A DNA stretch of 64,000 bases from a virus. A model generated the notes under the pieces. That model was given only the letters and a program-made list of their open reading frames with translations. It made no database searches and was not told where the DNA came from. Below, piece after piece: positions 21,841 to 64,000 of the stretch; within the stretch, counting starts at the first letter, position 1; every line of letters starts with the position of its first letter. The stretch covers positions 64,001 through 128,000 of the IMG/VR virus record IMGVR_UViG_3300043449_002450; one strand, 5' to 3'. The translations under genes were made by a program, and so were the position numbers.

Positions 21841-23241
21841 ATGTCGAAGTCTCTGTTCGAAGAGGCAATAGCAGATGCAAAGCAGCTACGTGAAGCAGCT
21901 GAAGCTAATGCCAAGAATGCCATCATAGAAGCCGTAACACCACGCATCAGAGAGTTTATTGAAGCTCAGCTGGTGGGCGGAAAGGTCGTAAATGAGAGTA
22001 ACTTTCTAGCTGATGCTCTGCTTAGCGAAGAGAATGAGGGCATCGAAGATGAGACCGATGAGAATGTTGAGCTTGATGAGACAGCATTACGTTCTCTCGC
22101 AAATCTAGTCAATGGGACTAGGACTAATGAGTCTGATGCACTGCGTGAGGCCTTCGAGACTCTGACTGAAGAAGAGCAAGAAAAGCTTTTTAGCATGCTT
22201 CGTGAAGAAGAGTCTAATAAAGTGCCAGCCACTGCCAAAAAAACAGCAAGTGGTGGCCTAGATAATGAAGGAGAGGCATCTGAAAATCTATACGAGGTCG
22301 ATCTCGAAGATCTTAAAGAGACTCTAATGAAAGAATTTAAAAATAAGAAAACATCAGGAGCTTCAAAGATGTCAAGAAAGACCCTAAGAGAAAGTTATCA
22401 CATGGACGAGGACCTCTATGAGCTCGACGAGATGATGGATGATGCCGATCTCGAAGAGGCCATTCTAAAGATCGTTGGAAACTCTGAGGAGCGTGACAGC
22501 TTCGACAAGCTCGGCCTATCTGGCATTGAGTTCGAGGAAGAGGCTGGAGAGGACGAGGAAGAGGAAGTCGCGATGGGCGACGAGGAAGGCGAAGGCGAAG
22601 AGGCCGGAGAGGCCCCTCCCGAAGGTGAAGGCGCTCCAGAAGCTCCTCTCGCCGAGATGGGTGTCTACGAGATCGATGAGAATATGCTCCGTCGAGAGCT
22701 TTCTCGTCTCCGTGAGGCCCGCAAGCGCGGCCGCGGTCGCAAGGCTAAGAACTCGTCGCACAAGGCAGCTGCCGCCGCTTTCGGTGGCGGAATGCTCGAG
22801 GGAGATCCCCTCGATGTGAAGACGCTCCAGGGCGTCAACCAACTCAAGAAGAAAGCTTTAAAAGAGGCGCACGAAAATCGTGCCCTAAAGACCCAGCTCA
22901 ATGAATACAGGAGTGCCGTGCAGACTCTCCGTGAGCAACTCAGTGACCTTAACTTGTTCAACGCAAAGCTTCTTTACGTCAACAAGATCCTCCAGAACAA
23001 AGACGTGTCTCCAGCACAGAGGAGATCGGCCATAGAGGCTCTTGACGGCGCATCCAATCTTCGCGAAGCCAAGTTGCTCTACCAGGGCTTGACAGCCTCG
23101 ATACAGTCGAACAACGCTTCGATCAACGAGTCTGTAAGGCACACAGCCGGCATGGCTTCACGTCCTGTCGCCTCCGCATCCGCTCGAATTGGCGCAGCGG
23201 GCGAGGTCGATCGTTGGGCAATCCTTGCAGGCATCAAGTAA
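21841..23241 (+). CDS. Prohead scaffolding/core protein (functional analogue of T4 gp22)
   Basis: Highly acidic coiled-coil protein with many (L/I)xE sites and a C-terminal RWAILAGIK, directly upstream of the major capsid gene. Confidence 0.75.
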   Translation: MSKSLFEEAIADAKQLREAAEANAKNAIIEAVTPRIREFIEAQLVGGKVVNESNFLADALLSEENEGIEDETDENVELDETALRSLANLVNGTRTNESDALREAFETLTEEEQEKLFSMLREEESNKVPATAKKTASGGLDNEGEASENLYEVDLEDLKETLMKEFKNKKTSGASKMSRKTLRESYHMDEDLYELDEMMDDADLEEAILKIVGNSEERDSFDKLGLSGIEFEEEAGEDEEEEVAMGDEEGEGEEAGEAPPEGEGAPEAPLAEMGVYEIDENMLRRELSRLREARKRGRGRKAKNSSHKAAAAAFGGGMLEGDPLDVKTLQGVNQLKKKALKEAHENRALKTQLNEYRSAVQTLREQLSDLNLFNAKLLYVNKILQNKDVSPAQRRSAIEALDGASNLREAKLLYQGLTASIQSNNASINESVRHTAGMASRPVASASARIGAAGEVDRWAILAGIK

Positions 23242-23267
23242 TCATTCGAAACTAGGAGATTTTTCAA

Positions 23268-25196
23268 ATGTCTAAGACATTCTCACTCAACCAGCTCACA
23301 GAGGGCATCAGCGATCGGAATGTGACCGATGAGGGCCGCAGGCTCCTCGAGAAGTGGAACCGCACTGGCCTTCTCCGCGGACTTGATGGCGTCAAGCGTG
23401 ACACCATGGCTCGCCTCCTCGAGAACCAGGCTTCGCAGCTTCTTCGGGAGTTCAACAGCCTCGGCTCAGGTGGTGGTAGCCAGGCTGCCGGTGGCGACAT
23501 CCGCGGCTTCACCAACATCGCCTTCCCCATCGTCCGCCGCGTCTTCGGTGGCCTCGTGGCCAACGAGCTCGTCTCGATCCAGCCCATGTCACTTCCAAGC
23601 GGACTCCTCTTCTACTTGGACTACACATACGGCTCTGACGTCGGTGGCGACGCCAACCTCGTGACCGGTAACTCCACCAGCGGCGCAACCTACAAGGCCG
23701 GCCAGTCGATCTACAACAACCCCACAGGCAAGGGCGTCCGCAGCGGATCTCTCGCCACGGGTGGTCAGTATGACCTCATCGGCACTGGCTTCACCAAGGT
23801 TCACACATCCTCACTCGTTGTGGGTGTCGCAGCCAAGGGCGCTTTCCACACAGCAGGCGGCGCAGCTTCTTCTGTTCTCGTTAGCAGCCAGCTGTGCTTT
23901 GCAACTGGCACAGACGGTCGCCTCCTCCAGTTCGACCCACAGGTCACAACTGCAATCGAGGACGATGCTGCCGATGGCGCCATCAACGGTTTCGGCCAGT
24001 TCCAGTTCCTCCTTCTCCCTGCATCCTCGTTCCCCCCGAACGTTGACTTCCAGCAGGTCAAGGAGATCGCTCTCCACTCAGCACAGGTTAGCTCGACTGC
24101 ACTCGGCCTCGCAGTTCCTGGTGAGTCGTTCCAGGGTGGAAGTGGAATCCTCAACATCCGTCGTCTCAACCAGTTCGGAACCTACGCGGGTGGCGTGTTC
24201 ACACCAAACCCACTTCTTCCATCCGGTTCATCTAACGCACACGTTCTGGTCGTTGTCTCTGGTTCATACCAGCCTAGCGCAGCTACCCCAGGACCTTACC
24301 TCACTGCATCGTATGCACTCACAGATGCACTCACAGTTGACAGCTCTGATGCCACGACTCTCACGATCCCCTCGTTCGAGTCTGACTTCAGCACGACACC
24401 CTCGGTTGTCATCCCTGAGATCGACATCAAGATCGAGAGCATCCCAGTCACTGCCACGACCCGCAAGCTCCGCGCTCGTTGGTCGCCAGAGTTGGCCCAG
24501 GACCTCAACGCCTATCACTCGATGGACGCTGAGGTGGAGCTCACCCAGATCCTCTCCGAGCAGATCGCTCTAGAGATCGACCGTGAGATCCTCAACGACC
24601 TCCTCACCGAGGCTCGAGGCGCCAACTACTACTGGTCCCGTGCACCTGGTCGATTCCTCAACAAGACGAACGGCGCCGAGATCGCTCGCTCCGACACCAC
24701 ATTCCCCGGTCCCCAGTTCACTGGCACCGTCCGTGAGTGGTACGAGACTCTCATCGAGACCGTCATTGACGTCGCCAACGAGATCCACCGCAAGACTCTC
24801 CGTGGTTCGGCCAACTTCATTGTGGTCAGCCCCGACGTCGCCACGGTCCTCGAGGCTTCGGTCATGTACAAGCCCAACTACAGCATCGACGGCCAGGGCC
24901 AGGTCGGTGGCTCCATGTCGATCGGTGCTTCACCCATCGGCACTCTGAGCAACCGCTTCACCGTCTACAAGGACCCCTACTTCCCCCGTAACAAGATCCT
25001 CGTCGGTTACAAGGGCGGCAGCTACCTCGAGACAGGCTATGTCTACGCTCCCTACGTTCCGCTCATCGTCACCCCGACGATCTTCGCTCCTGAGGACTTC
25101 ACCCCCAGGAAGGGCGTGATGACCCGTTACGGCAAGAAGATGGTTCGCGCCGACTTCTACGGAACGGTCACCTGCCTCGACATGAACATCATCTGA
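23268..25196 (+). CDS. Major capsid protein (T4 gp23-like) with large insertion
   Basis: LLENQ, FPIVRRVF, VSIQPMSLPSGLLFYLD, TRKLRARWSPELAQDLNAYH, EIDREIL, YAPYVPL and PRKGVMTRYG; strongly C-ending codon bias; AGGAG SD. Confidence 0.96.
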   Translation: MSKTFSLNQLTEGISDRNVTDEGRRLLEKWNRTGLLRGLDGVKRDTMARLLENQASQLLREFNSLGSGGGSQAAGGDIRGFTNIAFPIVRRVFGGLVANELVSIQPMSLPSGLLFYLDYTYGSDVGGDANLVTGNSTSGATYKAGQSIYNNPTGKGVRSGSLATGGQYDLIGTGFTKVHTSSLVVGVAAKGAFHTAGGAASSVLVSSQLCFATGTDGRLLQFDPQVTTAIEDDAADGAINGFGQFQFLLLPASSFPPNVDFQQVKEIALHSAQVSSTALGLAVPGESFQGGSGILNIRRLNQFGTYAGGVFTPNPLLPSGSSNAHVLVVVSGSYQPSAATPGPYLTASYALTDALTVDSSDATTLTIPSFESDFSTTPSVVIPEIDIKIESIPVTATTRKLRARWSPELAQDLNAYHSMDAEVELTQILSEQIALEIDREILNDLLTEARGANYYWSRAPGRFLNKTNGAEIARSDTTFPGPQFTGTVREWYETLIETVIDVANEIHRKTLRGSANFIVVSPDVATVLEASVMYKPNYSIDGQGQVGGSMSIGASPIGTLSNRFTVYKDPYFPRNKILVGYKGGSYLETGYVYAPYVPLIVTPTIFAPEDFTPRKGVMTRYGKKMVRADFYGTVTCLDMNII

Positions 25197-25219
25197 TGTT
25201 CTAGCCGACAAGGCACATG

Positions 25220-25243
25220 GCGGCCACCCTTCGGGGTGGCCGC
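25220..25243 (+). terminator. Hairpin with cUUCGg tetraloop after the major capsid gene
   Basis: GCGGCCACCC-TTCG-GGGTGGCCGC perfect 10-bp stem; weak U-tract (TCTTGT). Confidence 0.75.
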
Positions 25244-25423
25244 TCTTGTATCTGCACCAGCTTCTGTTGGACTTCGTCATGACTGATGGGTGTAATGTCA
25301 TCCCACTTTTTAATGTGATCTGATGAATCTGCAGTGTGTTCGGCCTATGTAATCCTAGGCCCAATCCAGTGATCACCTGACACCGACGGGGGATTGGAAG
25401 CATTCGGAGCATAGGAGGATCAC

Positions 25424-25894
25424 ATGCCAAAAACCGTAATTAGTGACGCGAAGGGCGTCGTCAACTCAGCAGGATCAGGAACAACCATCTCTAACGCTGT
25501 TACACTTAGCGGCGCGACAACTCTAAGCGGCGCGACAACTCTAAGCGGCGCGACAACTCTAAGCGGCGCTGTAACGCTAGGTGCTGCACTCGTAGGTAGT
25601 GTAGACACGCGTACTGACGCAGGCGCTGTGAGCCTTACATCTGTTGTAACGCTAGTTGTTACAACAACAGCCTCAGCACTTACACTTGCTGCAGGAACAG
25701 CAGGTCAAATTAAGATTTTGTCAATGACGACTGACGGTGGCGATGCAACACTTACGCCAGCGGGAGGCATCTTGAGCCCGTCCGCGGGCGCATTAACAAC
25801 AATCACATTTGATGCAGTGGGTGATGCTGTTACTTTGGTCTATACGGGCGCTAAGTGGGCCATAGTATCCAATTACGGTTGTGCATTAGCATAA
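25424..25894 (+). CDS. Putative capsid decoration/head fibre protein
   Basis: AGGAGG SD; Thr/Gly/Ala-rich with TLSGAT repeats; C-terminal ITFDAVGDAVTLVYTGAKWAIV beta motif; follows the major capsid gene. Confidence 0.6.
   Translation: MPKTVISDAKGVVNSAGSGTTISNAVTLSGATTLSGATTLSGATTLSGAVTLGAALVGSVDTRTDAGAVSLTSVVTLVVTTTASALTLAAGTAGQIKILSMTTDGGDATLTPAGGILSPSAGALTTITFDAVGDAVTLVYTGAKWAIVSNYGCALA
25502..25573 (+). repeat. In-frame 18-bp tandem repeat, four copies (ACTCTAAGCGGCGCGACA)
   Basis: Two identical central copies and two slightly diverged flanking copies encoding TLSGAT/TLSGAV. Confidence 0.9.
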
Positions 25895-25912
25895 TAACAT
25901 TTAGGAGTCAAA

Positions 25913-26062
25913 ATGAGCACACAGATTAAGGCAGATGAAAAAACTGCTCCCAAGAAAGATCTAGCTGTAGAGGCAGCCATCAAAAAGCTGGTTCAAACTC
26001 TCGTACAGAGAGGCGTTCTTAAGTCACATGAGGCAGAAGAAGTTCTCAAAGACTTCAAGTAA
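25913..26062 (+). CDS. 49-aa small protein absent from the ORF track (MSTQIKADEK...EEVLKDFK)
   Basis: AGGAG SD 5 nt before ATG 25913; fills the gap before a terminator hairpin. Confidence 0.7.
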   Translation: MSTQIKADEKTAPKKDLAVEAAIKKLVQTLVQRGVLKSHEAEEVLKDFK

Positions 26063-53522: not shown

Positions 53523-53556
53523 CCGCCCTGTAACTTAATTGGAGAGTATAACAAGA

Positions 53557-56028
53557 ATGTCTGACCAATCTGTCATTGATTATTTCGGCGGCGATGATCT
53601 CGCTGCCGATGTATTTGGTAAATACATCCTCAGGGATGCGCAGGGCAATCAGCTTGAGCGTTCACCTGTCGATATGCATCGGCGTCTTGCCAGAGAATTC
53701 GCACGAATAGAGGAAAAGTATCCAAACCCGATGTCGGAGGATGAGATCTTTAGACTTCTTGATGGATTCAAGCAGGTTGTCCCGCAGGGTTCACCGTTGT
53801 CAGGAATTGGCAACCCATACCAGCTGCAAAGTCTATCCAACTGCTTTGTGGTCGACCAGCCCCACGACAGCTACGCGGGCATCCTGTTCACAGATCAGGA
53901 GCAGGTCCAGATCATGAAGCGCCGAGGTGGAGTCGGATTTGACATCTCCACGATCCGCCCAAAGGGCCAACCGACTTCCAATGCTGCCCGGACGACAGAC
54001 GGTATTGGTGTCTTCATGGAGAGGTTCAGCAACACCTGTCGTGAAGTTGCCCAGGGAGGCCGGCGCGGCGCGCTCATGCTCACGATCGATTGTCGTCACC
54101 CCGAGATCGAGACCTTCATCGACATCAAGCGCGACCTGAAGAAGGTCACTGGTGCCAACATCTCGATCCGCTTCACCGATGAGTTCATGAAGGCAGTGGA
54201 GAGCAACGTCGGGTTCTGCCTCCGCTGGCCAGTCGAGGCACGCCCCGAGGACGCAGAGATCGTCAAGATGGTCGACGCGAAGCAGATATGGGACAAGTTT
54301 GTCGACGCCGCATGGGCTTCTGCAGAGCCCGGAGCACTGTTCTGGGATGCTGTGGTCAATAACGGAATTGTCGATTGTTATCGTGATGTTGGCTACAAGA
54401 CGATCTCTACAAATCCGTGCGGTGAGATCCCGCTCAGCCCCTACGACTCCTGTCGCTTGATGGTTGTCAATCTCACGTCGTTTGTCAATGGTCCGTTTAG
54501 CGCGAATCCATCGTTTGATTTTGCAAGATTTAATGATGTTGTCATGAAAGCGCAGCGACTCATGGACGATCTTGTGGATCTCGAGGTGGAGTGCGTCGAT
54601 CGGATCCTCGAGAAGATTGAGAGAGATCCCCAGCCTGAGAATGTGAAGGCCATCGAGCTGCAGCTCTGGAAGAAGATTCGCGCGGCAGGTCTCAACGGTC
54701 GTAGAACAGGTCTAGGAGTAACAGGACTTGGTGACACGCTTGCCGCGCTAAACATCCAGTATGGAAGCAAGTGCTCGATCGAAGTGACAGAGGAAATCTA
54801 CAAGGCTCTCGCGGTCGGTGCTCATCGTTCATCTTTGGTCATGGCGAAAGAGCGCGGTGCATTCCCAGTGTGGGACTACCAGAAAGAGAAGGATCACCCC
54901 TATCTTCAGAAAGTGATAAACACATGCAACGGTGAATATCATGACATGTGGCGAACCACAGGCCGTCGAAACATCGCGCTAACAACAACTGCGCCTGTTG
55001 GATCGATCTCCTGCCTCACGCAGACCACAAGCGGAATCGAGCCCGCATTCCTCCTCTCCTATAAGCGTCGCCGCAAGATTACACAAAGTGATACTAAGAC
55101 TGTTCCAGACTTCGTAGACCCATTGGGTGATAAGTGGCAAGAATATACTGTCTACCACCACTGGTTCAAGAAGTGGATGGAAGTGACAGGAAAGTCAGAT
55201 CCAAAAGAGAGCCCATACTGGGGTGGAACTGCCAACGATATTGATTGGGTAAAATCAGTTGAGATCCAGGCAGCAGCACAGCGGTGGATCGACCACAGTA
55301 TTAGCAAGACTTGCAATCTTCCAAACACAGCCACACGTGAGATCGTCAATGACGTCTATCTTAAGGCGTGGCGCGAGGGATGCAAGGGATTCACGGTCTA
55401 CCGTGACGGATGCAGGACAGGTGTTCTCATCTCAACAGAGGAGAAGAAAGAGACACCCAAGACTGCTGCAGACGTCCATCCCAAGCGCCCCAAGGAGCTA
55501 CCTTGTGACATCCACCGCGTCAACATAAAGGACGATGCGGGAAATACACAGTCATGGATGGTCTTGGTCGGCCTTAAAGATGGCGCACCATACGAAGTCT
55601 TCAGCGGCCTAGCAGAGCACATCGAGGTCCCCAAGAAGACCAAGAGTGGTGTCCTCATCCGTAACGGCAAGAAGGACGGTGTTGCCACCTACAACCTTCG
55701 TGTCCCAGTCGGCAATGACGATGAGATCCTCTTCAAGGACGTGGTGAACCTGTTCGCCAACCCGACACAGGGTGCCTTCACGAGGACGATCTCTCTGGCA
55801 CTCCGGCACGGCATCCCGGTCAACTTCGTGGTAGACCAGCTCCAGAAGGATAAGGACTCAGATATGTTCACGTTCTCACGGTGTGTCGCTCGTGTTCTCA
55901 AGGGCTACATTCCAGATGGGACCAAGTCGACGTCGGAGAAGAAGTGCAAGGAGTGCGGTAGCGATCAGGTCTTCTACATGGAAGGATGCATCACCTGCCA
56001 GTCTTGCGGTTCTAGCAAGTGCTCTTAA
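53557..56028 (+). CDS. nrdJ: Class II (adenosylcobalamin-dependent) ribonucleotide reductase
   Basis: SNCFV, RGGVG, RRGALM, TNPCGEI, TTAPVGS, SGIEP, ISKTCNLP, KGFTVYRDGCR and a C-terminal domain ending in a Cys4 ribbon; no beta-subunit gene nearby. Confidence 0.9.
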   Translation: MSDQSVIDYFGGDDLAADVFGKYILRDAQGNQLERSPVDMHRRLAREFARIEEKYPNPMSEDEIFRLLDGFKQVVPQGSPLSGIGNPYQLQSLSNCFVVDQPHDSYAGILFTDQEQVQIMKRRGGVGFDISTIRPKGQPTSNAARTTDGIGVFMERFSNTCREVAQGGRRGALMLTIDCRHPEIETFIDIKRDLKKVTGANISIRFTDEFMKAVESNVGFCLRWPVEARPEDAEIVKMVDAKQIWDKFVDAAWASAEPGALFWDAVVNNGIVDCYRDVGYKTISTNPCGEIPLSPYDSCRLMVVNLTSFVNGPFSANPSFDFARFNDVVMKAQRLMDDLVDLEVECVDRILEKIERDPQPENVKAIELQLWKKIRAAGLNGRRTGLGVTGLGDTLAALNIQYGSKCSIEVTEEIYKALAVGAHRSSLVMAKERGAFPVWDYQKEKDHPYLQKVINTCNGEYHDMWRTTGRRNIALTTTAPVGSISCLTQTTSGIEPAFLLSYKRRRKITQSDTKTVPDFVDPLGDKWQEYTVYHHWFKKWMEVTGKSDPKESPYWGGTANDIDWVKSVEIQAAAQRWIDHSISKTCNLPNTATREIVNDVYLKAWREGCKGFTVYRDGCRTGVLISTEEKKETPKTAADVHPKRPKELPCDIHRVNIKDDAGNTQSWMVLVGLKDGAPYEVFSGLAEHIEVPKKTKSGVLIRNGKKDGVATYNLRVPVGNDDEILFKDVVNLFANPTQGAFTRTISLALRHGIPVNFVVDQLQKDKDSDMFTFSRCVARVLKGYIPDGTKSTSEKKCKECGSDQVFYMEGCITCQSCGSSKCS

Positions 56029-56060
56029 TAAATTGATCGAGAGACGCGTATAATAGATGT

Positions 56061-56663
56061 ATGAACATCATCACACGCGTCTCTCCCCTCATTAAGGAAT
56101 GCGAACTTCGCGCTCCGCCTATCATCATCCGCGTCAATAAGTTCGATGAGGACTCAGCAAAGGAGTTTGTCCAGCACATGTCGATTGCCCAGTCTTCTGG
56201 GCAAAATGTGATTCCTGTCGTCATCGACAGCTATGGCGGTCAGGTCTACTCTCTTATGACCATGATCGATGCAATCAAGGGGTCACGAGTTCCTGTCGCG
56301 ACCATCGTCGAGGGTAAGGCGATGTCCTGCGGCGCTGTCCTGTTGACTTGTGGCGCGCCTGGCATGCGCTATGCATCTCCTCACTCCACCATCATGATCC
56401 ACGAGGTAGCGTCTGGTGGTGCTGGCAAGGTCGAGGAGATCAAGGCAGATGCCAAGGAGACAGATCGACTCAATGAGAAGATCTTCAAGCTTATGGCAGA
56501 CAACATTGGTAAGGATGAATCATTCTTCCTCGATGAGATCCATCACAAGAAGCATGCAGACTGGTATCTTGAGCCAGAAGAAGCAAAAGAGATTGGCCTT
56601 ATTAACCATGTTAAGATTCCAGAGATGATGTTAACTGTTGACGTCAAATATAAGTTTGAATAG
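56061..56663 (+). CDS. clpP: ClpP-like serine protease
   Basis: IDSYGG, AMSCG (Ser), IMIHE (His) and DWYLEPEEAKEIGLI (Asp). Confidence 0.88.
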   Translation: MNIITRVSPLIKECELRAPPIIIRVNKFDEDSAKEFVQHMSIAQSSGQNVIPVVIDSYGGQVYSLMTMIDAIKGSRVPVATIVEGKAMSCGAVLLTCGAPGMRYASPHSTIMIHEVASGGAGKVEEIKADAKETDRLNEKIFKLMADNIGKDESFFLDEIHHKKHADWYLEPEEAKEIGLINHVKIPEMMLTVDVKYKFE

Positions 56664-56949
56664 AAGAGCAGAACTACTATTAAAAGTTGTCACATGGAGA
56701 CTCTTCTCCATGTGTTACGGCTTTTCGATCGCATACTTTTTCACAAATAACGCCATGGAATCTCTAGGAATTGTGGCTCTAACAGGATCCACTTTGACAC
56801 TTTTGCAGTGGCTTTTTGAGATTTTGTGGGATAACCACATCAGGGAGCGCTTAAGATATGCCCTTTCAAGAGAACAAGGTAGAGCTAGTTGGCTATTATG
56901 GTGGCGACGAGGCACACGCGCTGTCAGCGTGGACGAGCACAAGCCGTGA
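56656..56949 (+). CDS. Small membrane protein, DUF2061-like
   Basis: LLKVVTWR...IAYFFT...FEILW with two hydrophobic segments. Confidence 0.55.
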   Translation: MNRRAELLLKVVTWRLFSMCYGFSIAYFFTNNAMESLGIVALTGSTLTLLQWLFEILWDNHIRERLRYALSREQGRASWLLWWRRGTRAVSVDEHKP

Positions 56950-57523
56950 CCTAACAGAGGAGAAGCGGAATCGAATCCCGACGCTCCTAAAAATGCTTGC
57001 AGAAAATGGACACGAGACACCGTTTGAGAAGAGCTCACTTCATTTTCTAGTGACAGTTGACACAGCAACACACATCCACCTCCTAAAGCATCGCATTGGC
57101 GTGTCCATTAATGGCGAATCAGCACGCTACAAAGAGCTGCGTGATGATAAATACTTTCTTCCAAAAGACTGGCCGCTAGAGGAGCAGGCGCTTTATGTTG
57201 CCTTCATGGAGGACGCTCTCATGCGCTATCATGATGCGCTCGAGCGCTTCTTCGAGAATGGCATGAATCGAAAGCGTGCGAAAGAATCGGCTAGATTCTA
57301 CCTTCCCTATGGCAACCAGGTTACATTGGATGTGATGTTTAACTGGAGATCTTTTAACCACTTTCTTGGCCTACGCATGAAGCAAGACGCCCAGAGAGAA
57401 GTTAGAGAGCTAGCAGAAAAGATGCTACTCCTAGTAAGGAACATTCCAGGTGATCCGTTCAAGCACACGATCGAAGCATTCGGTCATCTTGATGATGTCG
57501 AGCAGTTTTCTCCGCCTTACTAA
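56858..57523 (+). CDS. thyX: Flavin-dependent thymidylate synthase (canonical)
   Basis: GHETPFE, KHRIGVSINGESARY, ESARFYLP and NWRSFNHFLGLR...AQREVR. Confidence 0.92.
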   Translation: MPFQENKVELVGYYGGDEAHALSAWTSTSRDLTEEKRNRIPTLLKMLAENGHETPFEKSSLHFLVTVDTATHIHLLKHRIGVSINGESARYKELRDDKYFLPKDWPLEEQALYVAFMEDALMRYHDALERFFENGMNRKRAKESARFYLPYGNQVTLDVMFNWRSFNHFLGLRMKQDAQREVRELAEKMLLLVRNIPGDPFKHTIEAFGHLDDVEQFSPPY

Positions 57524-57884: not shown

Positions 57885-58316
57885 ATGCGTGCTCCCCCGT
57901 CGCCTTATAGTCTAATACAAGAGAAGGTCCAGGATGATCCCTGGCGTGTCTTTGTTGTTTGCATATTCTGCAACTTGACTAAGCGTGTTGATGCCGAGCC
58001 CATCATGTGGAAGTTCTTTGACAGATGGCCAGACGCATCATCTGCTGCGCTTGCGGATCAAGAAGAGATCCGTCTAATGATCAAGGATCTTGGTCTTGGA
58101 GAACGACGTAGCAAGACCCTTGTAAGGATGTCTCAAGATTATCTTTCGTGGAACTCCCGTGACCCTGGAGACCTCTATGGTATTGGAGAATATGCAACAG
58201 CAGCCTACAAGATTTTCTGTGAACACGCGTGGAGCCAGATCGCTGAGCCAAAGGACGGCGCACTGAAGAAGTATTGGAAATGGATCAACAACGTGCAGGA
58301 GGTTAGAAATGCCTGA
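57885..58316 (+). CDS. MBD4-like HhH mismatch DNA glycosylase (stand-alone catalytic domain)
   Basis: PPSPYSLIQE...DPW, WKFFDRWP, LGL, LYGIGEY...YKIFC and PKDGALKKYWKW parallel the human MBD4 glycosylase domain as recalled (PPRSPFNLVQE..DPW..LHGIGKY..YRIFC..PEDHKLNKYHDW). Confidence 0.85.
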   Translation: MRAPPSPYSLIQEKVQDDPWRVFVVCIFCNLTKRVDAEPIMWKFFDRWPDASSAALADQEEIRLMIKDLGLGERRSKTLVRMSQDYLSWNSRDPGDLYGIGEYATAAYKIFCEHAWSQIAEPKDGALKKYWKWINNVQEVRNA

Positions 58317-59106
58317 GGGGCCAGAAGTTAGGATCGTTACAGACGGATTGCGACGCTCTATCCTAGACCAGAAAATTGTATCGGCATCTATTATAAGCGG
58401 TCGCTATGCTAAGCGCTCGCCTGATGGGTGGAACCTTCTGCAGGTTCCTAGGCAAGTTATTGATGTGAGCTGCAAGGGTAAATTTATCTACATGTCTCTT
58501 GAAGGCGACACATACCTTCTAAGCACGCTGGGTATGACAGGATCATGGTCATCAAATCTGACTAAGCACAGTCGAATTAAGATTGAGCTAGAGAGCGGTG
58601 GGACGGTCTACTTCAACGATATGAGAAATTTTGGGACAGTAAAATTGATCTCATCTCGGGACCAGCTAGATAAGAAGCTGAAAGAACTGGGACCTGATAT
58701 GCTATCTGAAGACGTGACAGATACAGTCTTTCTTAGATCTATTAGAAGATATAATAAGACACTAGCAGAAGTGTTAATGGACCAGAAAGTAGTTTGTGGT
58801 GTAGGAAACTATCTTAAATCAGAATCTCTATATTTTAGCGGTCTTGATCCTCACCGTCTAACATCAACTTTAAGTGACGAAGAAATTAAAAATCTTAATA
58901 AAGTCATCAAAAAGGTGATTAGAACTTCTTATGAGACAGGAGGCGCGACGATCTACACTTTCTCCAACTTTGATGGAGAGAAGGGCGATTACACCAAGCG
59001 TTTTGCTGTCTACAATCAGACCCAGGATCCTCTGGGCAACAAGATCAAAAGGGAAACGACAAGGGACGGTCGGACAACCTTTTGGGTTCCAGGAATTCAA
59101 AAATAA
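58309..59106 (+). CDS. Fpg/Nei DNA glycosylase-lyase, zincless-finger type
   Basis: N-terminal MPEGPEV, KGK, LGMTG, DMRNFG, LGPD, LMDQ..GVGNY; C-terminal GRTTFWVPGIQ without a Cys4 finger. Confidence 0.92.
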   Translation: MPEGPEVRIVTDGLRRSILDQKIVSASIISGRYAKRSPDGWNLLQVPRQVIDVSCKGKFIYMSLEGDTYLLSTLGMTGSWSSNLTKHSRIKIELESGGTVYFNDMRNFGTVKLISSRDQLDKKLKELGPDMLSEDVTDTVFLRSIRRYNKTLAEVLMDQKVVCGVGNYLKSESLYFSGLDPHRLTSTLSDEEIKNLNKVIKKVIRTSYETGGATIYTFSNFDGEKGDYTKRFAVYNQTQDPLGNKIKRETTRDGRTTFWVPGIQK

Positions 59107-59115
59107 GAGGAAAAG

Positions 59116-59361
59116 ATGGAAACAAATAGTTACAAGCTTTCTGATGATGTGATTGGTCAGGTTGCAAAGCTTCTACAGCTAGCCATTATCACAGGAACAG
59201 ACGTCGTCGACAATCTCAGGACCCTTAAGGTCAAGCTTGATGTCGATTCTGGTTTGGTTGTTCCAGACCCAGACTACATCAAGACTTTCGACGAGAACCT
59301 AACACGCCTTGTCGCAACAGCAGCGATGGTATCTGCTCATGACGATGAGGGAGAAAACTAG
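59116..59361 (+). CDS. Hypothetical protein
   Basis: GAGG SD; 81 aa; stop codon coupled to the next gene. Confidence 0.6.
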   Translation: METNSYKLSDDVIGQVAKLLQLAIITGTDVVDNLRTLKVKLDVDSGLVVPDPDYIKTFDENLTRLVATAAMVSAHDDEGEN

Positions 59362-59735
59362 TGGCCGATAAGCTCGATCTAATGTTTGATATGCGGGCCA
59401 AGTTCATGGATGAGCTTCGTAAGAAGCACCCGGACGCCTATCCAGACATGCCCGTTGATCTAACTAGCAAGAAGTCGCAACAGCACCTCAGGGATCTCGC
59501 TCTGCGTGGCGTCGAGGAGGTCTTTGAGGCTGTCCAGCACCTTAAGAACTGGAAGCCACATAGGGAGACTGAGGTCGCCGATTTTGATCGCGCGGCTTTC
59601 AAAGAGGAGATGGTTGATTCATTCAACTACTTCCTGTCTCTTCTCATCCTGATGGGTGTTACACCGGACGAACTTTACCAAGCTTACGTCGATAAAGATC
59701 AGGTCATACACGGTAGAATAAAAGGTAACTACTGA
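59361..59735 (+). CDS. All-alpha NTP pyrophosphatase (dimeric dUTPase/MazG-like)
   Basis: EEVFEA...WKPH...EEMVDSFNY...Y.DK...R...Y pattern. Confidence 0.8.
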   Translation: MADKLDLMFDMRAKFMDELRKKHPDAYPDMPVDLTSKKSQQHLRDLALRGVEEVFEAVQHLKNWKPHRETEVADFDRAAFKEEMVDSFNYFLSLLILMGVTPDELYQAYVDKDQVIHGRIKGNY

Positions 59736-59742
59736 GGATCAT

Positions 59743-60678
59743 ATGAAATTGTCTGACGCGCTCCAGCGCCAGCGTGTGTTTTCTGATCTGTTCTTTGATT
59801 CCACCAAGTTTGATGATGCCAAGCGCGAGGAGATGACAAAGTCTTTCGCGCTTGCATTGCATGGCGAAGTATCAGAACTTATCAGCTCGATCAACTTCAA
59901 GGACCATCACTCAAATAGGAAAACTCCTGATCGGGAGAAGATCCTATACGAGTCGATCGACGTGATGCGTTATCTCTTCGCGATCATGAATGTATGGGGA
60001 TGTGAACCTGACGAGGTCGAGACAGCCTTTGAAGATAAGGACACATTCCTACACATGCGCCATCGTATCGAGAACGCAAAGTGGGACGGTCGCCCGGTCC
60101 TCCTCGTCGACGTCGATGATGTTATTGCGCACTTCAGGAAGGACTACTTCGAGTGGCTTAGCGACAAACACGGAATCAACATCCCGTTGGACTATCCGGA
60201 ATACTACGCATCCTCACCACTGCACGAGCGTGGCATCAACCCAGAAGCTTCCTTTAAGGAATTCATTAGCGAGCGTCGACTCCGTGTCATCGAGCCCATA
60301 GAGGGTGTCCGCGCCGTGCTTAGGGAGGCGCAGAAGATGGGTTTTTGGATCCAGCTTCTGACTGCACGTCCCGACCAGAATCTCATTTGCCTCTATGACA
60401 CCTACCACTGGATAGACAAGATGAGCATCCCATTTGATGGGATTGCTTTCAGCGGTGAAAAATACAGGTGGCTTGTGCAGAGTCAGTTTTATGGTCATGT
60501 AGCAGCATGCATCGATGATTCGCCCAAGCACGCGGCAGAGTATGCAAATCACGGTCTTCTTGTAATCTCACCGAAGCTTTCGTATAATGAATCATTGAGA
60601 GACGTAAAAAACGTCATTCGATATGGCAGCGTCGATGAGCTGCTTGAACAGATCACAGCACTTAAAGAAAAGAGGTAA
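59743..60678 (+). CDS. MazG-like pyrophosphatase domain fused to HAD 5'(3')-deoxyribonucleotidase
   Basis: N-terminal GEVSEL...YESIDVMRY; C-terminal HAD motifs VDVDDV, LTAR and IDDSP. Confidence 0.78.
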   Translation: MKLSDALQRQRVFSDLFFDSTKFDDAKREEMTKSFALALHGEVSELISSINFKDHHSNRKTPDREKILYESIDVMRYLFAIMNVWGCEPDEVETAFEDKDTFLHMRHRIENAKWDGRPVLLVDVDDVIAHFRKDYFEWLSDKHGINIPLDYPEYYASSPLHERGINPEASFKEFISERRLRVIEPIEGVRAVLREAQKMGFWIQLLTARPDQNLICLYDTYHWIDKMSIPFDGIAFSGEKYRWLVQSQFYGHVAACIDDSPKHAAEYANHGLLVISPKLSYNESLRDVKNVIRYGSVDELLEQITALKEKR

Positions 60679-60680
60679 AA

Positions 60681-61628
60681 ATGCCCCAGAATCTAGACCT
60701 ACAACCTATCACCCTTCCCATGGCGATCCGCTTCGGCGAGAAGCCCACAACCGAGTTTGTCAACAGCCTTGATGCACTCAAGCTCGAGCTTGTTGACGCT
60801 CCGGACCCCTACACCATTCGACAGGCTGTCTACTGCTTTGTCAAGTCGACCTGGGCTGACCAGCATGTTCCATTCCGCGATGCATCTGATGCTGATCTCT
60901 CGAAGACTCTTGAGGACGTCTTCGCAGGACGTGCTCTTCCTGCAGCGATGGAGCTGATCGGTCTCACCTTCCTCGTGGGTGGCATCGACACACAGACCGT
61001 GACTCACCTCATCCGCCACCGTGCAGGTTCCTTCGCAGCACAGTGCACCGGCGACCGTTGGCTCTCTCACGAGCGCAGCCTTGTTCCTGGTTCCATCCAG
61101 AACAGTCCGGAGTTCTATGCCCGGTGGCAGGCGCATGTCCAGGAGGCGAAGGAGCTCTACACAGACATGGTCGACTCCAAGCAGATCAGCCTGATGGATG
61201 CTCGCCACGTCCTTCCCAAGTGCCTTGAGACCTTCTACTACATGCGCATGAACATCCGTGACGCGTTTGGTTTCATCAAGCAGCGGCAGGATAAGCAGAT
61301 CCAGCCCGAGGAGGACAACATCCTCGCAGCTCTCATGGCCCGCGAGATCATCAAGATCTTCCCTGAGGCACACGTGGCGATCAACCTCCGCGAGCCTGCC
61401 TGGCACTACATCAAGACGTTTCGCAATGGCACGGGCACCAACCTCTACTGGCCTGATGAGGACAGTGAGAAGCACCTTACATACCACCCGAACGACACGA
61501 TCTACCAGGCAACTCGTGACGACATGAATGGCGCGGATGGCGGCGTCCCACACTTCCGCAAGCTCTGGAATGAGATCCTGTCTGACATCGACACTCTCGT
61601 TACTAACTACAAGAATAGCAAGGTATAA
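60681..61628 (+). CDS. Divergent ThyX-fold flavoprotein (second paralogue, altered active site)
   Basis: LTF...THLIRHRAGSF, DARHVLP and NIR...F...R...Q.E ThyX scaffold, but GH replaced by GRALP and SxRY by CTGDRW; GAGG SD; strong C-ending codon bias. Confidence 0.8.
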   Translation: MPQNLDLQPITLPMAIRFGEKPTTEFVNSLDALKLELVDAPDPYTIRQAVYCFVKSTWADQHVPFRDASDADLSKTLEDVFAGRALPAAMELIGLTFLVGGIDTQTVTHLIRHRAGSFAAQCTGDRWLSHERSLVPGSIQNSPEFYARWQAHVQEAKELYTDMVDSKQISLMDARHVLPKCLETFYYMRMNIRDAFGFIKQRQDKQIQPEEDNILAALMAREIIKIFPEAHVAINLREPAWHYIKTFRNGTGTNLYWPDEDSEKHLTYHPNDTIYQATRDDMNGADGGVPHFRKLWNEILSDIDTLVTNYKNSKV

Positions 61629-61630
61629 CA

Positions 61631-62074
61631 ATGAATAACGTCTACATCGCAAGTGGCTGGTTCTCTCCTGAATGGCTCCAGGAGGTCGAGGACATCAAGA
61701 AGGTCCTCGAGGATCTCGACCTCGCTTACTTCTCTCCCAAGGACTATGCCATCGCAGAGGCTGACTCTTCGACTGACACCCAGAAGCAGATCTTTGACGG
61801 CAACGTCAAACACCTTGACACCTGTGACTGGATGGTCTGCAATACCCGCAATAAGGATATGGGATCGATCTGGGAGGCAGGTTATTTCTACAGTCTCAAC
61901 AAGCCCATCGTCTACTTCTGTGCAGGTCTACCACCGGGCGCCAAGTTTAATCTGATGCTTGCAGCAAGTGGTGTTGCTGTGTGCACATCCGTCCAGGACC
62001 TACGTGATTATCTTCGTCAGTGCAAGGAGGCAGGCAAGCTCTTGCCACGCACCTACGGCGGATTGATCGAGTAG
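61631..62074 (+). CDS. Nucleoside 2'-deoxyribosyltransferase/nucleotide N-hydrolase family protein
   Basis: VYIASGWFS, YFSP, DMGSIWEAGY (catalytic Glu), KPIV and FNLML. Confidence 0.85.
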   Translation: MNNVYIASGWFSPEWLQEVEDIKKVLEDLDLAYFSPKDYAIAEADSSTDTQKQIFDGNVKHLDTCDWMVCNTRNKDMGSIWEAGYFYSLNKPIVYFCAGLPPGAKFNLMLAASGVAVCTSVQDLRDYLRQCKEAGKLLPRTYGGLIE

Positions 62075-62087
62075 CCTGCAGTAATGC

Positions 62088-62129
62088 TTCAAGCCTCACC
62101 AACGTGATAAATAGTTGGTGAGGCTTGAA
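62088..62129 (+). promoter_or_regulatory. Perfect 16-bp inverted repeat with a late-promoter motif in the loop and the SD in the 3' arm
   Basis: TTCAAGCCTCACCAAC-GTGATAAATA-GTTGGTGAGGCTTGAA. Confidence 0.75.
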
Positions 62130-62133
62130 CTAT

Positions 62134-62583
62134 ATGGATAGAATGATGATTAGGCGCATGGTTCTGAAAGAGATGCATGATCACATGGCGCATGCACATC
62201 ACAAGCACCGCCACCATGATGAAGAACACGATGATCATGAGGGGCGCGTCTTTCACCACAACGGAGCTGAGGCTGAGAGTGACATGATTCACTCCAATCT
62301 CTGGACTCTCAAGACACAGGCTTGTGATCTCTACGATATGATCGGAGATAGAGACGATCTTCCAGAGTGGGTCCAGGAGAAAATAGCTGTTGCTGGATCG
62401 ATGCTCGATTCAGTCTACGACTATCTTCACTATGAGTATCATGGCGAGGAAGAAGATAGACACGTTCACAGTGATAGAATTGCTTCTTTTGAGACAGGAC
62501 ACAACTTTGCTTCTGATGCTGATGTTTATGTCGCTCATTTAAATGAAAAGGCGTCGCGGCGCCTTCGCAGAAGAAGAGCCTGA
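62134..62583 (+). CDS. His/Asp-rich hypothetical protein, putative late head-internal protein
   Basis: MIRRMVLKE N-terminus, His tract and DDLPEWVQEKI...VYDYLHYE helical motif; GGTGAGG SD. Confidence 0.65.
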   Translation: MDRMMIRRMVLKEMHDHMAHAHHKHRHHDEEHDDHEGRVFHHNGAEAESDMIHSNLWTLKTQACDLYDMIGDRDDLPEWVQEKIAVAGSMLDSVYDYLHYEYHGEEEDRHVHSDRIASFETGHNFASDADVYVAHLNEKASRRLRRRRA

Positions 62584-62609
62584 ATGTGAATCCAGCCCAC
62601 GGTCGTGGG

Positions 62610-62637
62610 TGTAAAATAAGGCCACGGTGGCTATGAT
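62610..62637 (+). promoter_or_regulatory. Putative early/middle promoter TGTAAA-N16-TATGAT
   Basis: Matches the recurring motif; ATG 62644 lies 6 nt downstream with no SD. Confidence 0.6.
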
Positions 62638-62643
62638 GTGAGC

Positions 62644-63624
62644 ATGAAAGTTCTCATTACTGGCCACCGTGGCTTTATAGCGTCTAATCTTCCAAGAGCA
62701 CTCGAGGATCTGGGTCATGAGGTCGTCGCTCCTCATGATATCCACCTGGACTTCAAAATCAAGTCAGGCGAGCATTGCGTCCACAGGAACTCTGAGGATC
62801 ATTGGGCGCGTGAGCTTGACTATCACGGCGTCGACGTTGTCATACACAACGCTGCGCTTGTTGGAACAGATGTTGTCGCGCTTAATCCCTCTGAGGCAAC
62901 ACTTTCTAACGTGACCGGGACATACAACATCTGTCGAGCTGCTGAAAAATCTGGTGCAGCTTTGCTCTATCTGGGCACAACTGTGATCTATGACACAGAT
63001 CGCTATCAAGATGTTGAGATCACTGAGCGATCCTCGCACGGCCCGCAGACGCTTTACGGTTCTCTGAAACTGGCAGGCGAGCACATCGTCCGCGCACACA
63101 GCACGAGGTGGTCGATCGTCCGCCCGCTCTTCTGCTACGGCGGCGTAGGTGACAACAACTCACTGATCGCGAAGGGGTTCTTTGGTGCTGCCAGCGGCAA
63201 GGAGAAGATCGACATGTTCCTCGATCCGAAGAAGATCAAGGACTACATGCGCGTGGAGGACTTCTGCGATGCTGTGGCAACTGTCGTGGACAAGGAGCTC
63301 TGGAACGATGACTGGAACGTCGCAGCGGAGACGCCTGAGAACACGGGCAAGATCGTCGAGATGATGAGCGAGATCTCGTGCAAGGATCTAAAGGGTGTGG
63401 TAAAATGGCACCCAGGAACCGACTACTTGGGTAACCATCGTCTAAGCTCACAGAAGTTCAGGGATGCATCTGGTTGGTCTCCAAAGTTCGACCTATATGG
63501 TGGCTTGAAAAAGTCATGGAATGACATCCAGCGCAATCTGGGTTCAACGGATTACAATCCCCTCCGCTACCTGGAAGATGCCAAGAAGCGCGGCCTTGAT
63601 CTCACACAATTCTTCAACCGGTGA
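62644..63624 (+). CDS. NAD-dependent NDP-sugar epimerase/dehydratase (extended SDR)
   Basis: MKVLITGHRGFIA Rossmann motif, VIHNAA, NVTGT, YGSLK (YxxxK) and DYMRVEDF. Confidence 0.9.
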   Translation: MKVLITGHRGFIASNLPRALEDLGHEVVAPHDIHLDFKIKSGEHCVHRNSEDHWARELDYHGVDVVIHNAALVGTDVVALNPSEATLSNVTGTYNICRAAEKSGAALLYLGTTVIYDTDRYQDVEITERSSHGPQTLYGSLKLAGEHIVRAHSTRWSIVRPLFCYGGVGDNNSLIAKGFFGAASGKEKIDMFLDPKKIKDYMRVEDFCDAVATVVDKELWNDDWNVAAETPENTGKIVEMMSEISCKDLKGVVKWHPGTDYLGNHRLSSQKFRDASGWSPKFDLYGGLKKSWNDIQRNLGSTDYNPLRYLEDAKKRGLDLTQFFNR

Positions 63625-63630
63625 AATAAC

Positions 63631-64000
63631 ATGAGTATCATTCGACCTCCGGATCGGTTTGTGGGCCTCCATGCCCACTCCGGTTTCTCGACCATGGACG
63701 GCCTCGGCTATCCTGCCCAGCACATTGACTTTGTGCTGAAGAACGGCATGGATGCCTGGGCACTGACAGACCACGGCAACGGCAGCGGTCTTGCCCACGC
63801 TCAGTCACACGCTAAGAAGATGAAGAAGGCTGGCCAGAAGTATCGCCAGCTGAACGGCGTGGAGTTCTACTTTGTCCCATCGTTGAAGAACTGGGCAGAT
63901 CAGTATCAAGATCACAAGGACGCTGTCGCTGCCGCTCGTTCTGAGAAGAAGGCGAAGGAGGCGACCGACATCGATGCTGATGATGAGGCAGGTGCAGGTC
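63631..64000 (+). CDS. dnaE: DNA polymerase III alpha subunit, N-terminal PHP domain (3'-truncated; not in the ORF track)
   Basis: Own translation: MSIIRPPDRFVGLHAHSGFSTMDGLG...ALTDHGN...GVEFY, open to the window end. Only the PHP part is visible. Confidence 0.8.
   Translation, partial: MSIIRPPDRFVGLHAHSGFSTMDGLGYPAQHIDFVLKNGMDAWALTDHGNGSGLAHAQSHAKKMKKAGQKYRQLNGVEFYFVPSLKNWADQYQDHKDAVAAARSEKKAKEATDIDADDEAGAG

Follow-up and report, generated by a model that had tools for sequence, protein, structure and literature searches.

A conserved candidate pyrimidine-nucleotide remodelling module around the DnaE gene of giant phages

Described base-replacement systems and the genes around dnaE

Cytosine replacement in the T-even phages and in phages of the RB69/DLP3/HY126 type combines the gp56 dCTPase, a ThyA-fold enzyme that is either dCMP hydroxymethylase or the flavin-dependent AfhB, a kinase of the dNMP or YorR-like type, and DNA glycosyltransferases, and Bacillus phages with hydroxymethyluracil or uracil in their DNA (SPO1 and PBS2) exclude thymine with a dTTPase or dUTPase and a dTMP 5'-nucleotidase. 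In phages such as RB69, DLP3, and RL38J1 the ThyA homologues act as flavin-dependent 5-hydroxy-dCMP synthases; they have Asp where ThyA has Asn177, and an Asn in place of Asp169 is diagnostic of them. Near the synthase their gene clusters include a YorR- or TMK-like kinase, and they also code for a dCTPase and for glycosyltransferases by which arabinosyl or hexosyl chains are assembled on DNA (Lee et al., NAR 2026; PMC13326640). Bacillus phage SP-15 has two Thy1 genes and DNA containing 5-dihydroxypentyluracil, and Kropinski et al. hypothesise that its gp130 is a hydroxymethyluridylate synthase (PMC5977210). Here, we describe a gene module in bases 64001-128000 (the window, 64,000 nucleotides in all) of IMG/VR record IMGVR_UViG_3300043449_002450, which is 176,181 bp long and, with a CheckV completeness of 52%, represents part of a giant-phage genome. 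The module lies around the phage's own gene for DnaE (DNA polymerase III alpha) and includes a divergent ThyX-fold paralogue, ThyX2, and, directly after dnaE, a YorR-like kinase fused to a short ThyA-fold domain (mini-ThyA). Our tentative reading, to which we give a little short of an even chance, is that this is a conserved, phage-only, pre-replicative module for pyrimidine-nucleotide remodelling, and that it would most likely yield a deoxycytidine nucleotide with a C5 modification, 5-hydroxy or 5-hydroxymethyl in type, for incorporation by DnaE.

Open reading frames (ORFs) were identified with Pfam, NCBIfam, and PHROGs, and the module genes are all on the plus strand. Neighbourhood counts refer to 87 viral loci with a ThyX2 relative (49-94% identity), and a partner is counted if it lies within 10 kb. 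The principal genes, in window coordinates unless stated otherwise, are as follows:

56858-57523, plus strand: canonical ThyX (ThyX1), for ordinary dTMP supply; Thy1 at 1.3e-34, TIGR02170 at 104.5 bits (cut-off 87.9)
59116-59361, plus strand: o81, a small conserved protein of 81 amino acids (aa) without a family match; its stop overlaps the next start
59361-59735, plus strand: all-alpha MazG/dimeric-dUTPase-like pyrophosphatase; dUTPase_2 at 25.7 bits (cut-off 22.9), 1.6e-5
59743-60678, plus strand: fusion of an N-terminal MazG-like domain to a C-terminal NT5C-type HAD 5'(3')-deoxyribonucleotidase (Pfam)
60681-61628, plus strand: ThyX2, divergent ThyX-fold paralogue, 315 aa; Thy1 at 1.1e-19, residues 71-229 only
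61631-62074, plus strand: nucleoside 2-deoxyribosyltransferase-family protein (NDT); Nuc_deoxyrib_tr (PF05014) at 8e-17
62125-62583, plus strand: o152, a variable gene without a family match, present in only 9 of the 87 loci
62638-63624, plus strand: SDR1, an SDR-family NDP-sugar epimerase/dehydratase/reductase; Epimerase at 6.4e-29, RmlD_sub_bind at 1.9e-23
63631-64000, continuing to genome position 131197, plus strand: 5' end of dnaE; PHP, DNA_pol3_alpha, finger, and HHH_6 domains
genome 131194-132102, 3.2 kb past the window end: YorR-like kinase::mini-ThyA fusion; its start overlaps the dnaE stop by 4 bp

An earlier reading of the window from its sequence alone (the sequence-only reading) had described a tightly coupled run of genes that ends at DnaE, with a canonical ThyX about 3 kb upstream, and both descriptions hold. 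The intergenic gaps in the run are 2 to 54 bp, or the genes overlap, and DnaE is full length in the genome (1188 aa); ThyX1, which passes TIGR02170, sits 3.2 kb upstream.

The locus resembles the T-even, RB69, and HY126 systems in its all-alpha dNTP pyrophosphatase, in a ThyA-fold domain that has the catalytic Cys and an Asp at the Asn177 position and is associated with a YorR-like kinase, in the retention of a canonical thymidylate synthase, dCMP deaminase, and thymidine kinase, and in the presence of GT4-type glycosyltransferases in the genome. However, the ThyA-like domain here is ~150 residues long, against 217-246 in those phages, is fused to the kinase, escapes Pfam, and has Glu at the Asp169 position, and the ThyX-fold paralogue, NDT-family enzyme, and 5'-nucleotidase that are constant here are without counterparts in those systems. 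The replicase is DnaE, whereas those phages use a family B polymerase, and unlike in HY126-type phages no Afh-type sugar-activation genes adjoin the module. SP-15 is likewise a giant phage in which a canonical ThyX is joined by a ThyX-fold paralogue that has diverged very far and has been proposed to supply DNA with a modified pyrimidine, but its polymerase is of family A with a fused uracil-DNA glycosylase. When run against the SP-15 genome, the ThyX2 profile does not detect gp130 and finds only a marginal match to gp9; gp130 therefore belongs to a separate lineage, and no specific kinship can be claimed. As in SPO1 and PBS2, a pyrophosphatase and a 5'-deoxynucleotidase are proposed to work one after the other on a single canonical nucleotide, here within one protein, although this phage, unlike those, keeps a canonical ThyX and thymidine kinase. 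The parts (dNTP pyrophosphatase, nucleotidase, kinase, C5-enzyme, and polymerase) do match those of known pre-replicative base-replacement systems, the kinship on which the sequence-only reading had built.

The kinase::mini-ThyA fusion and ThyX2

The kinase::mini-ThyA fusion has a confident two-domain AlphaFold model, with a predicted local distance difference test score (pLDDT) of 93. Residues 5-142 match the folds of deoxynucleoside kinases, TMK, and YorR (Z 12.3, root mean square deviation [rmsd] 2.6-2.9 Å over 126-128 residues), and the YorR kinase of SPbeta is matched by the family profile at 2.2e-9. Residues 142-300 have a ThyA fold and match the CMP hydroxymethylase MilA (Z 12.3, rmsd 2.9 Å, 144 residues) and the dCMP hydroxylase AfhB of phage HY126 (Z 12.2, 149 residues), the latter being the top Foldseek match. 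Alignment of 22 homologues displays an N-terminal P-loop kinase followed by a C-terminal half with invariant SRRF, C-I-S, R-S-x-(D/E/N), and S-A-H motifs; residues R222, R223, C231, R251, S252, D262, and H295 are invariant, and the catalytic Cys, the Arg-Arg and Arg-Ser phosphate binders, and the His of the ThyA fold are all present. D262 stands at the position of Escherichia coli ThyA Asn177, 11 residues after the Arg of the Arg-Ser pair as in ThyA, and is thus of the cytosine type. The C-terminal part also matches T4 dCMP hydroxymethylase (E 1e-3), with Cys148, Arg168-Ser169, Asp179, and His216 of that enzyme aligned, and a D179N mutant of the T4 protein scores lower than the wild type against the fusion profile.

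The Asp169 position varies among 49 distinct mini-ThyA homologues (Asn in 22, Asp in 20, Glu in 7), and the family therefore resembles the hydroxylases as well as the hydroxymethylases. By sequence and model, mini-ThyA looks like the nucleotide-binding catalytic core of the dCMP hydroxylase/hydroxymethylase enzymes and is assigned to neither family. An Asp-type ThyA-fold domain whose best structural matches are the cytosine-specific MilA, AfhB, and T4 dCMP hydroxymethylase makes cytosine the likelier target, and the fusion appears a better candidate for the base-modifying synthase than ThyX2. The sequence-only reading had envisaged a flavin-dependent ThyX-fold route alone and was wrong in this, since an Asp-type ThyA-fold domain fused to a kinase lies directly after dnaE. 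In all 48 further loci with a mini-ThyA domain the gene order is DnaE, fusion, (SDR2), thymidine kinase, (DHH), and dCMP deaminase, with bracketed genes not constant. At two loci (L033 18077-19990 and L042 12805-14715) the ORF that contains the kinase::mini-ThyA match has a length of 637-638 aa, double that seen elsewhere, which suggests a further fused domain or read-through in ORF calling.

The fold of ThyX2 is clear from its AlphaFold2 model (pLDDT 94), for which the top Foldseek matches are all ThyX or PolB (E ~1e-10, template modelling score ~0.7 by target, 18-22% identity). A phmmer search of ThyX2 against Protein Data Bank (PDB) sequences gave nothing useful. ThyX2 shares this fold with ThyX (PF02511, TIGR02170; Thermotoga maritima TM0449, Mycobacterium tuberculosis ThyX) and with the UMP/dUMP methylase PolB but, unlike these, is always accompanied by NDT and nucleotide hydrolases. 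It scores 50.3 bits against the TIGR02170 thyX equivalog (cut-off 87.9), which ThyX1 in the same window exceeds with 104.5, and lacks the full ThyX motif RHRxxSxxxxSxRY. Its loop, RHRAGSFAAQCTGDRW, keeps RHR and the first Ser, but the second Ser is a Cys, two residues are inserted, and the conserved Tyr does not follow. Across the family the Asn-Glu pair of the ThyX loop has become Ser/Ala-Ala, such that S-x-N-E-x-S-x-R-Y is replaced by S-F-(S/A)-A-Q-C-T-G-D-R; these changes fall at the most conserved ThyX positions, which are retained even in the UMP methylase PolB. The Cys of this loop varies within the ThyX2 family and is therefore unlikely to be an essential nucleophile. In the family alignment ThyX2 retains the equivalents of T. 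maritima Arg147 and Arg174, and it has conserved extensions of ~25 residues at the N terminus and ~85 at the C terminus. Among the closest relatives ThyX2 is 89-94% identical compared with 55-80% for flanking genes, and is by this measure under stronger constraint than its neighbours. A 317-aa antisense ORF (60699-61652, minus strand) spans the whole ThyX2 gene and is preferred by naive longest-ORF callers; it is an annotation trap in a stretch of 53% GC, since the Pfam match, the homologues, and the confident fold are all on the plus frame.

A search of 1.84 billion cluster representatives for ThyX2 relatives returned only 485 matches at E ≤0.001, and in the 90%-identity collection the clade comprises 1,234 clusters, mostly from JGI, ENA, and Tara metagenome sources; relatives are encoded in 328 IMG/VR stretches. 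By tblastn against 50,697 deposited phage genomes the only true relative is in Geobacillus phage GR1 (45.7% identity), other phage ThyX matches having ≤31% identity over partial length, and blastn of the region against the same 50,697 records gave no match. A motif scan of 185,579 species-representative genomes found a single match, on a 26-kb contig of a metagenome-assembled genome. On these searches the clade appears to be, in effect, virus-restricted. A canonical ThyX accompanies ThyX2 in four of five large relatives (200-236 kb) and four of five further contigs, at varying positions and distances, and this coexistence persists over deep divergence (ThyX2 ~50% identical); ThyA is not detectable by Pfam. 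Sequence comparison thus supports the view that ThyX2 is neither an ordinary ThyX nor redundant with ThyX1.

Conservation, partner enzymes, and glycan genes

Within 10 kb of ThyX2, NDT and the MazG-like gene are each present at 81 of the 87 loci, the MazG/NT5C fusion at 75, and o81 at 74, whereas DnaE is found at 65 and SDR1 at 46. An o81 homologue lies directly 5' of the MazG-like gene in 74 loci, and the o81-MazG-MazG/NT5C-ThyX2-NDT grouping is not a chance one. The expectation from the window that these genes would co-occur in relatives is thus borne out, with no core member below 74 loci, as is the divergence of the ThyX paralogue and its persistence beside the canonical enzyme, the two coexisting in eight of ten large relatives.

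Three distant lineages keep ThyX2 together with NDT: the marine giant phages, GR1, and the metagenome contigs L028 and L029/L030. In the marine giant phages the nucleotidase belongs to the NT5C/HAD kind, and in the distant Firmicutes-type phages (GR1, L028, and L029/L030) it is an unrelated HD/YfbR-like protein; replacement by an enzyme that is not homologous, the step being kept, argues for functional linkage and for selection on the step itself. The gene order differs in the distant lineages, with a dUTPase_2-type gene in L028 and a DnaB-DHH-DnaE replication block in GR1 and L029. Most lineages have a pyrophosphatase of the dUTPase_2 type, and most have a YorR-like kinase, which is fused in one lineage and separate in the others. 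A 209-aa protein of L029, between ThyX2 and the kinase, was considered as a mini-ThyA and rejected.

GR1 has the two halves of the fusion as separate genes, a 145-aa kinase upstream (hhalign 97.6%) and a stand-alone 151-aa mini-ThyA (92.9%) that begins at the stop codon of the ThyX2 gene and has Asn at the Asp169 position. A glycosyltransferase gene lies inside the GR1 module, and a nitroreductase-type flavin reductase gene is located immediately before ThyX2. Downstream of the module are an amidoligase and a gamma-glutamylcyclotransferase, and these two, with the nitroreductase (together at L001 23306-24538 and 11286-11885, L001 being GR1), are possible extra hypermodification steps in what is the sole carrier in culture.

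The MazG-like protein matches PHROG nucleotide pyrophosphohydrolase phrog_12184 at 5.9e-18, and the acidic residues E53, E56, E82, E83, and D86 are invariant in 27 homologues; its profile has only marginal matches in the PDB, to dimeric dUTPases, and no specificity can therefore be inferred. In the MazG/NT5C fusion, dUTPase_2 covers residues 24-92 and NT5C (PF06941) residues 117-300 (5.3e-11, 43.2 bits against a cut-off of 24.8). HAD motifs I-IV (DxDDV, T, K, and DD; D123, D125, T207, K240, D258, and D259) are fully or almost fully conserved across 27 homologues, the N-terminal MazG-like domain retains only part of the metal-binding motif, and a phmmer search of this protein against PDB sequences gave nothing useful. 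NDT scores 61.9 bits against PF05014 (cut-off 28.8) and matches PDB entry 6EVS at 2.6e-11 with the catalytic D..G..WE.G aligned (DMGSIWEAG to DTGTAWELG); it is predicted to be either a base exchanger or an N-glycosidase.

Genes flanking the module on its 5' side are as follows:

53539-56663: ribonucleotide reductase large subunit (Ribonuc_red_lgC and a C-terminal TSCPD domain), then ClpP protease (Pfam)
57885-58316, plus strand: short HhH-GPD glycosylase (Pfam); within 10 kb in 41 of the 87 loci
58309-59106, plus strand: Fpg/Nei glycosylase (Pfam); within 10 kb in 45 of the 87 loci

The ribonucleotide reductase and ClpP genes are syntenic with the module in many relatives. The two glycosylase genes are back to back and, if bases are modified, their products could police unmodified or damaged bases. 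In the closest relatives 6.3-7.7 kb of unrelated genes lie between ThyX2 and NDT. This insertion (L003 10995-17266, and at the same place in L004-L007, L009, and L014) is not in this genome fragment and contains about eight genes without known function, one with weak carbohydrate-binding-like matches and one coding for 591 aa. Homologues of its genes, of the L024 AAA_28 and IMPDH-like genes, of the L023 GT8, and of the GR1 glycosyltransferase, HD, and nitroreductase genes were sought in the 176-kb fragment, and none but short repeats were found. GC content is 38% in window positions 1-4000 and 55% in 22001-26000, which hints at a mosaic origin of parts of the genome.

Sugar-related genes are concentrated in a glycan island that lies 18-36 kb before the window start and ~80 kb upstream of the module:

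genome 27452-45978, transferases: four GT2 and three GT1/GT4 genes; one of the GT1/GT4 genes matches PF20706 (GT4-conflict) and is beside a PD-(D/E)XK nuclease
same interval, sugar enzymes: GDP-mannose 4,6-dehydratase, UDP-glucose/GDP-mannose dehydrogenase, and two further SDRs
same interval, methyltransferases: FkbM and TylF

The sequence-only reading had seen neither a glycosyltransferase nor a kinase in the window, and both are present in the wider genome, the kinase after dnaE and the glycosyltransferases in this distant island. It had also counted the NDP-sugar epimerase as a pathway member, a link that is weak. SDR1 is inconstant (46 of 87 loci, and absent in relatives L007 and L009), it scores below every NCBIfam equivalog cut-off, and at least three more SDRs, including the GDP-mannose dehydratase, are in the separate island; SDR genes were rejected as members, and the suggestion of a sugar-bearing nucleotide therefore rests on little. 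The island fits synthesis of a virion or cell-surface glycan at least as well as DNA glycosylation. One relative has a GT8 gene adjoining dnaE, and with the glycosyltransferase in the GR1 module this keeps DNA glycosylation in play; later glycosylation on DNA is possible and is not indicated by the module locus.

A proposed pathway and its alternatives

The gene set, its conservation, the predicted folds, and the retained catalytic motifs are seen directly, and from them we infer all of the functional steps that follow. The MazG-like pyrophosphatase would convert a canonical dNTP (by analogy dCTP) to the dNMP, and the ThyA-fold domain, with its Cys and Arg-Ser kept and Asp at the Asn177 position, would modify C5 of dCMP. 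The fused YorR-like kinase half would convert the modified dCMP to the diphosphate, toward a triphosphate for DnaE, and the MazG/NT5C fusion and the NDT-family enzyme would remove or recycle unwanted canonical nucleotides. ThyX1, dCMP deaminase, and thymidine kinase would hold the dTTP supply normal, as in T4. ThyX2 would act in the same pathway, perhaps by supplying reduced flavin or a flavin-bound one-carbon unit to mini-ThyA, a role suggested by the lack of a cofactor site in mini-ThyA, or as a second C5-modifying enzyme acting on dUMP. In a more specific version, which we consider quite unlikely, ThyX2 and the truncated ThyA-like domain would form a two-part enzyme, of a kind not described before, in which ThyX2 reduces flavin or bears, on flavin N5, a one-carbon or hydroperoxide unit, mini-ThyA activates dCMP through its Cys and receives the group, and the kinase channels the product to DnaE. 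A co-folding prediction of ThyX2 with mini-ThyA scored 0.00 with controls not run, and counts neither for nor against such a pair.

Several observations weigh against a modified-cytosine output. All of the partner families also occur in ordinary nucleotide salvage. ThyX2 keeps R112, R114, R175, and R202, which bind dUMP and polarise uracil O4, and so fits a uracil substrate and possibly plain dTMP synthesis; in the complete GR1 genome it is the only Pfam-detected ThyX/ThyA-type gene and could simply be the thymidylate synthase there. Mini-ThyA has ~150 residues against 217-264 in its full-length counterparts, ends shortly after the His with most of the folate/flavin-binding parts gone, and is missed by Pfam Thymidylat_synt (PF00303), which finds nothing in the genome at E ≤0.001; it may therefore lack activity or have another role. 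In this phage Glu (RSSEC) occupies the Asp169 position and matches neither published signature, and L029 has no mini-ThyA within 10 kb.

One alternative is a role in ordinary dNTP supply and salvage, with canonical virion DNA and with ThyX2 as a divergent second thymidylate synthase that has, for example, other cofactor or oxygen needs. The YorR-like protein would then be a dTMP kinase, the MazG-like proteins housekeeping dUTPases or pool sanitisers, NT5C and NDT salvage enzymes for host deoxynucleosides, and mini-ThyA a degenerate remnant or a regulatory nucleotide-binding domain. We regard this as somewhat unlikely, although ThyX2 keeps the RHR motif, the first Ser, and the R147/R174 equivalents, GR1 has no other detected ThyX or ThyA, the neighbouring genes code for ribonucleotide reductase, dCMP deaminase, and thymidine kinase, and every family of the module is known from salvage pathways. 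Salvage does not readily account for a canonical ThyX kept beside ThyX2 over deep divergence and at varying genome positions, for a ThyX2 substrate loop altered at the top-conserved ThyX positions that PolB keeps, with a score of 50 bits against the 87.9 equivalog cut-off, for mini-ThyA catalytic residues that are all invariant, including an Asp that is pointless in a dUMP/dTMP enzyme, or for a nucleotidase swapped for a non-homologous one between lineages, which argues for selection on that step.

A modified thymine, made by the ThyX-fold route that is the core of the sequence-only reading, is also conceivable, with ThyX2 as a flavin-dependent dUMP hydroxymethylase or other C5-alkylating enzyme that competes with ThyX1, 5-hydroxymethyluracil or a derivative in place of part of the thymine (the hypothesis made for SP-15), and the MazG/NT5C fusion in the role of the dTTPase/dTMPase of the SPO1 and PBS2 groups. 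Trapping of ThyX intermediates has yielded 5-hydroxymethyl-dUMP, two ThyX-fold genes are present in one genome as in SP-15, the uracil-polarising Arg is kept in ThyX2, and a pyrophosphatase-nucleotidase fusion suits the classical dTTPase/dTMPase pair. We nonetheless think this unlikely, since the phage invests in dTMP through ThyX1, thymidine kinase, and dCMP deaminase, the ThyX2 profile does not detect SP-15 gp130, and the Asp-type ThyA-like domain is left unexplained; a search that was not exhaustive saw no 5-hydroxymethyldeoxyuridine DNA kinase or aGPT-Pplase-type gene near the module. The product might instead not be destined for DNA, with ThyX2, an N-glycosidase of the NDT family, and the SDRs making a free modified base or nucleoside (MilA/MilB- or PolB-like) that would serve in signalling, inhibit host enzymes, or go into glycan synthesis. 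The mildiomycin pathway pairs the C5-modifying MilA with the NDT-fold hydrolase MilB, MilA is a top structural match of the C-terminal domain of the kinase::mini-ThyA fusion, PolB is among the fold matches of ThyX2, and the genome has a large glycan island, but the module lies among replication genes and surrounds dnaE in every lineage, and a dNMP-kinase-fold domain fused to the ThyA-like domain points to dNTP formation, such that we hold this to be very unlikely. A purine system of the PurZ/MazZ/DatZ type was considered and dropped, with no PurZ-like gene seen in the neighbourhood.

Remodelling of cytosine nucleotides ahead of replication by DnaE would thus follow a pathway logic of a known kind, whereas the searchable literature contains no description of the ThyX2 clade or of the kinase::mini-ThyA fusion. 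The claim of an undescribed modification pathway stands insofar as the module is conserved and virus-restricted, and falls short insofar as a ThyX-derived hydroxymethylase has already been hypothesised for SP-15 (PMC5977210). The question can be taken to the bench in GR1, which is cultured, with Geobacillus stearothermophilus ATCC 10149 as its host, and carries ThyX2, a mini-ThyA with the 5-hydroxycytosine-type Asn, the kinase, and a glycosyltransferase.

The phage pyrimidine modifications known so far begin with full-length ThyA-fold enzymes, and the module would add to these a clade of ThyX-fold paralogues and the kinase::mini-ThyA fusion, both from a gene set that uncultured giant phages of marine and fresh waters commonly carry. 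If the DNA of these phages is modified, this would affect their visibility to metagenomic libraries and to restriction- and CRISPR-based host defences, and would bear on how nucleotide pools are rewired during infection and on new nucleotide-modifying enzymes as tools. Should ThyX2 and mini-ThyA indeed be two parts of one enzyme, modified cytosine would be made by a hybrid of two unrelated thymidylate-synthase folds that is widespread in marine giant phages.

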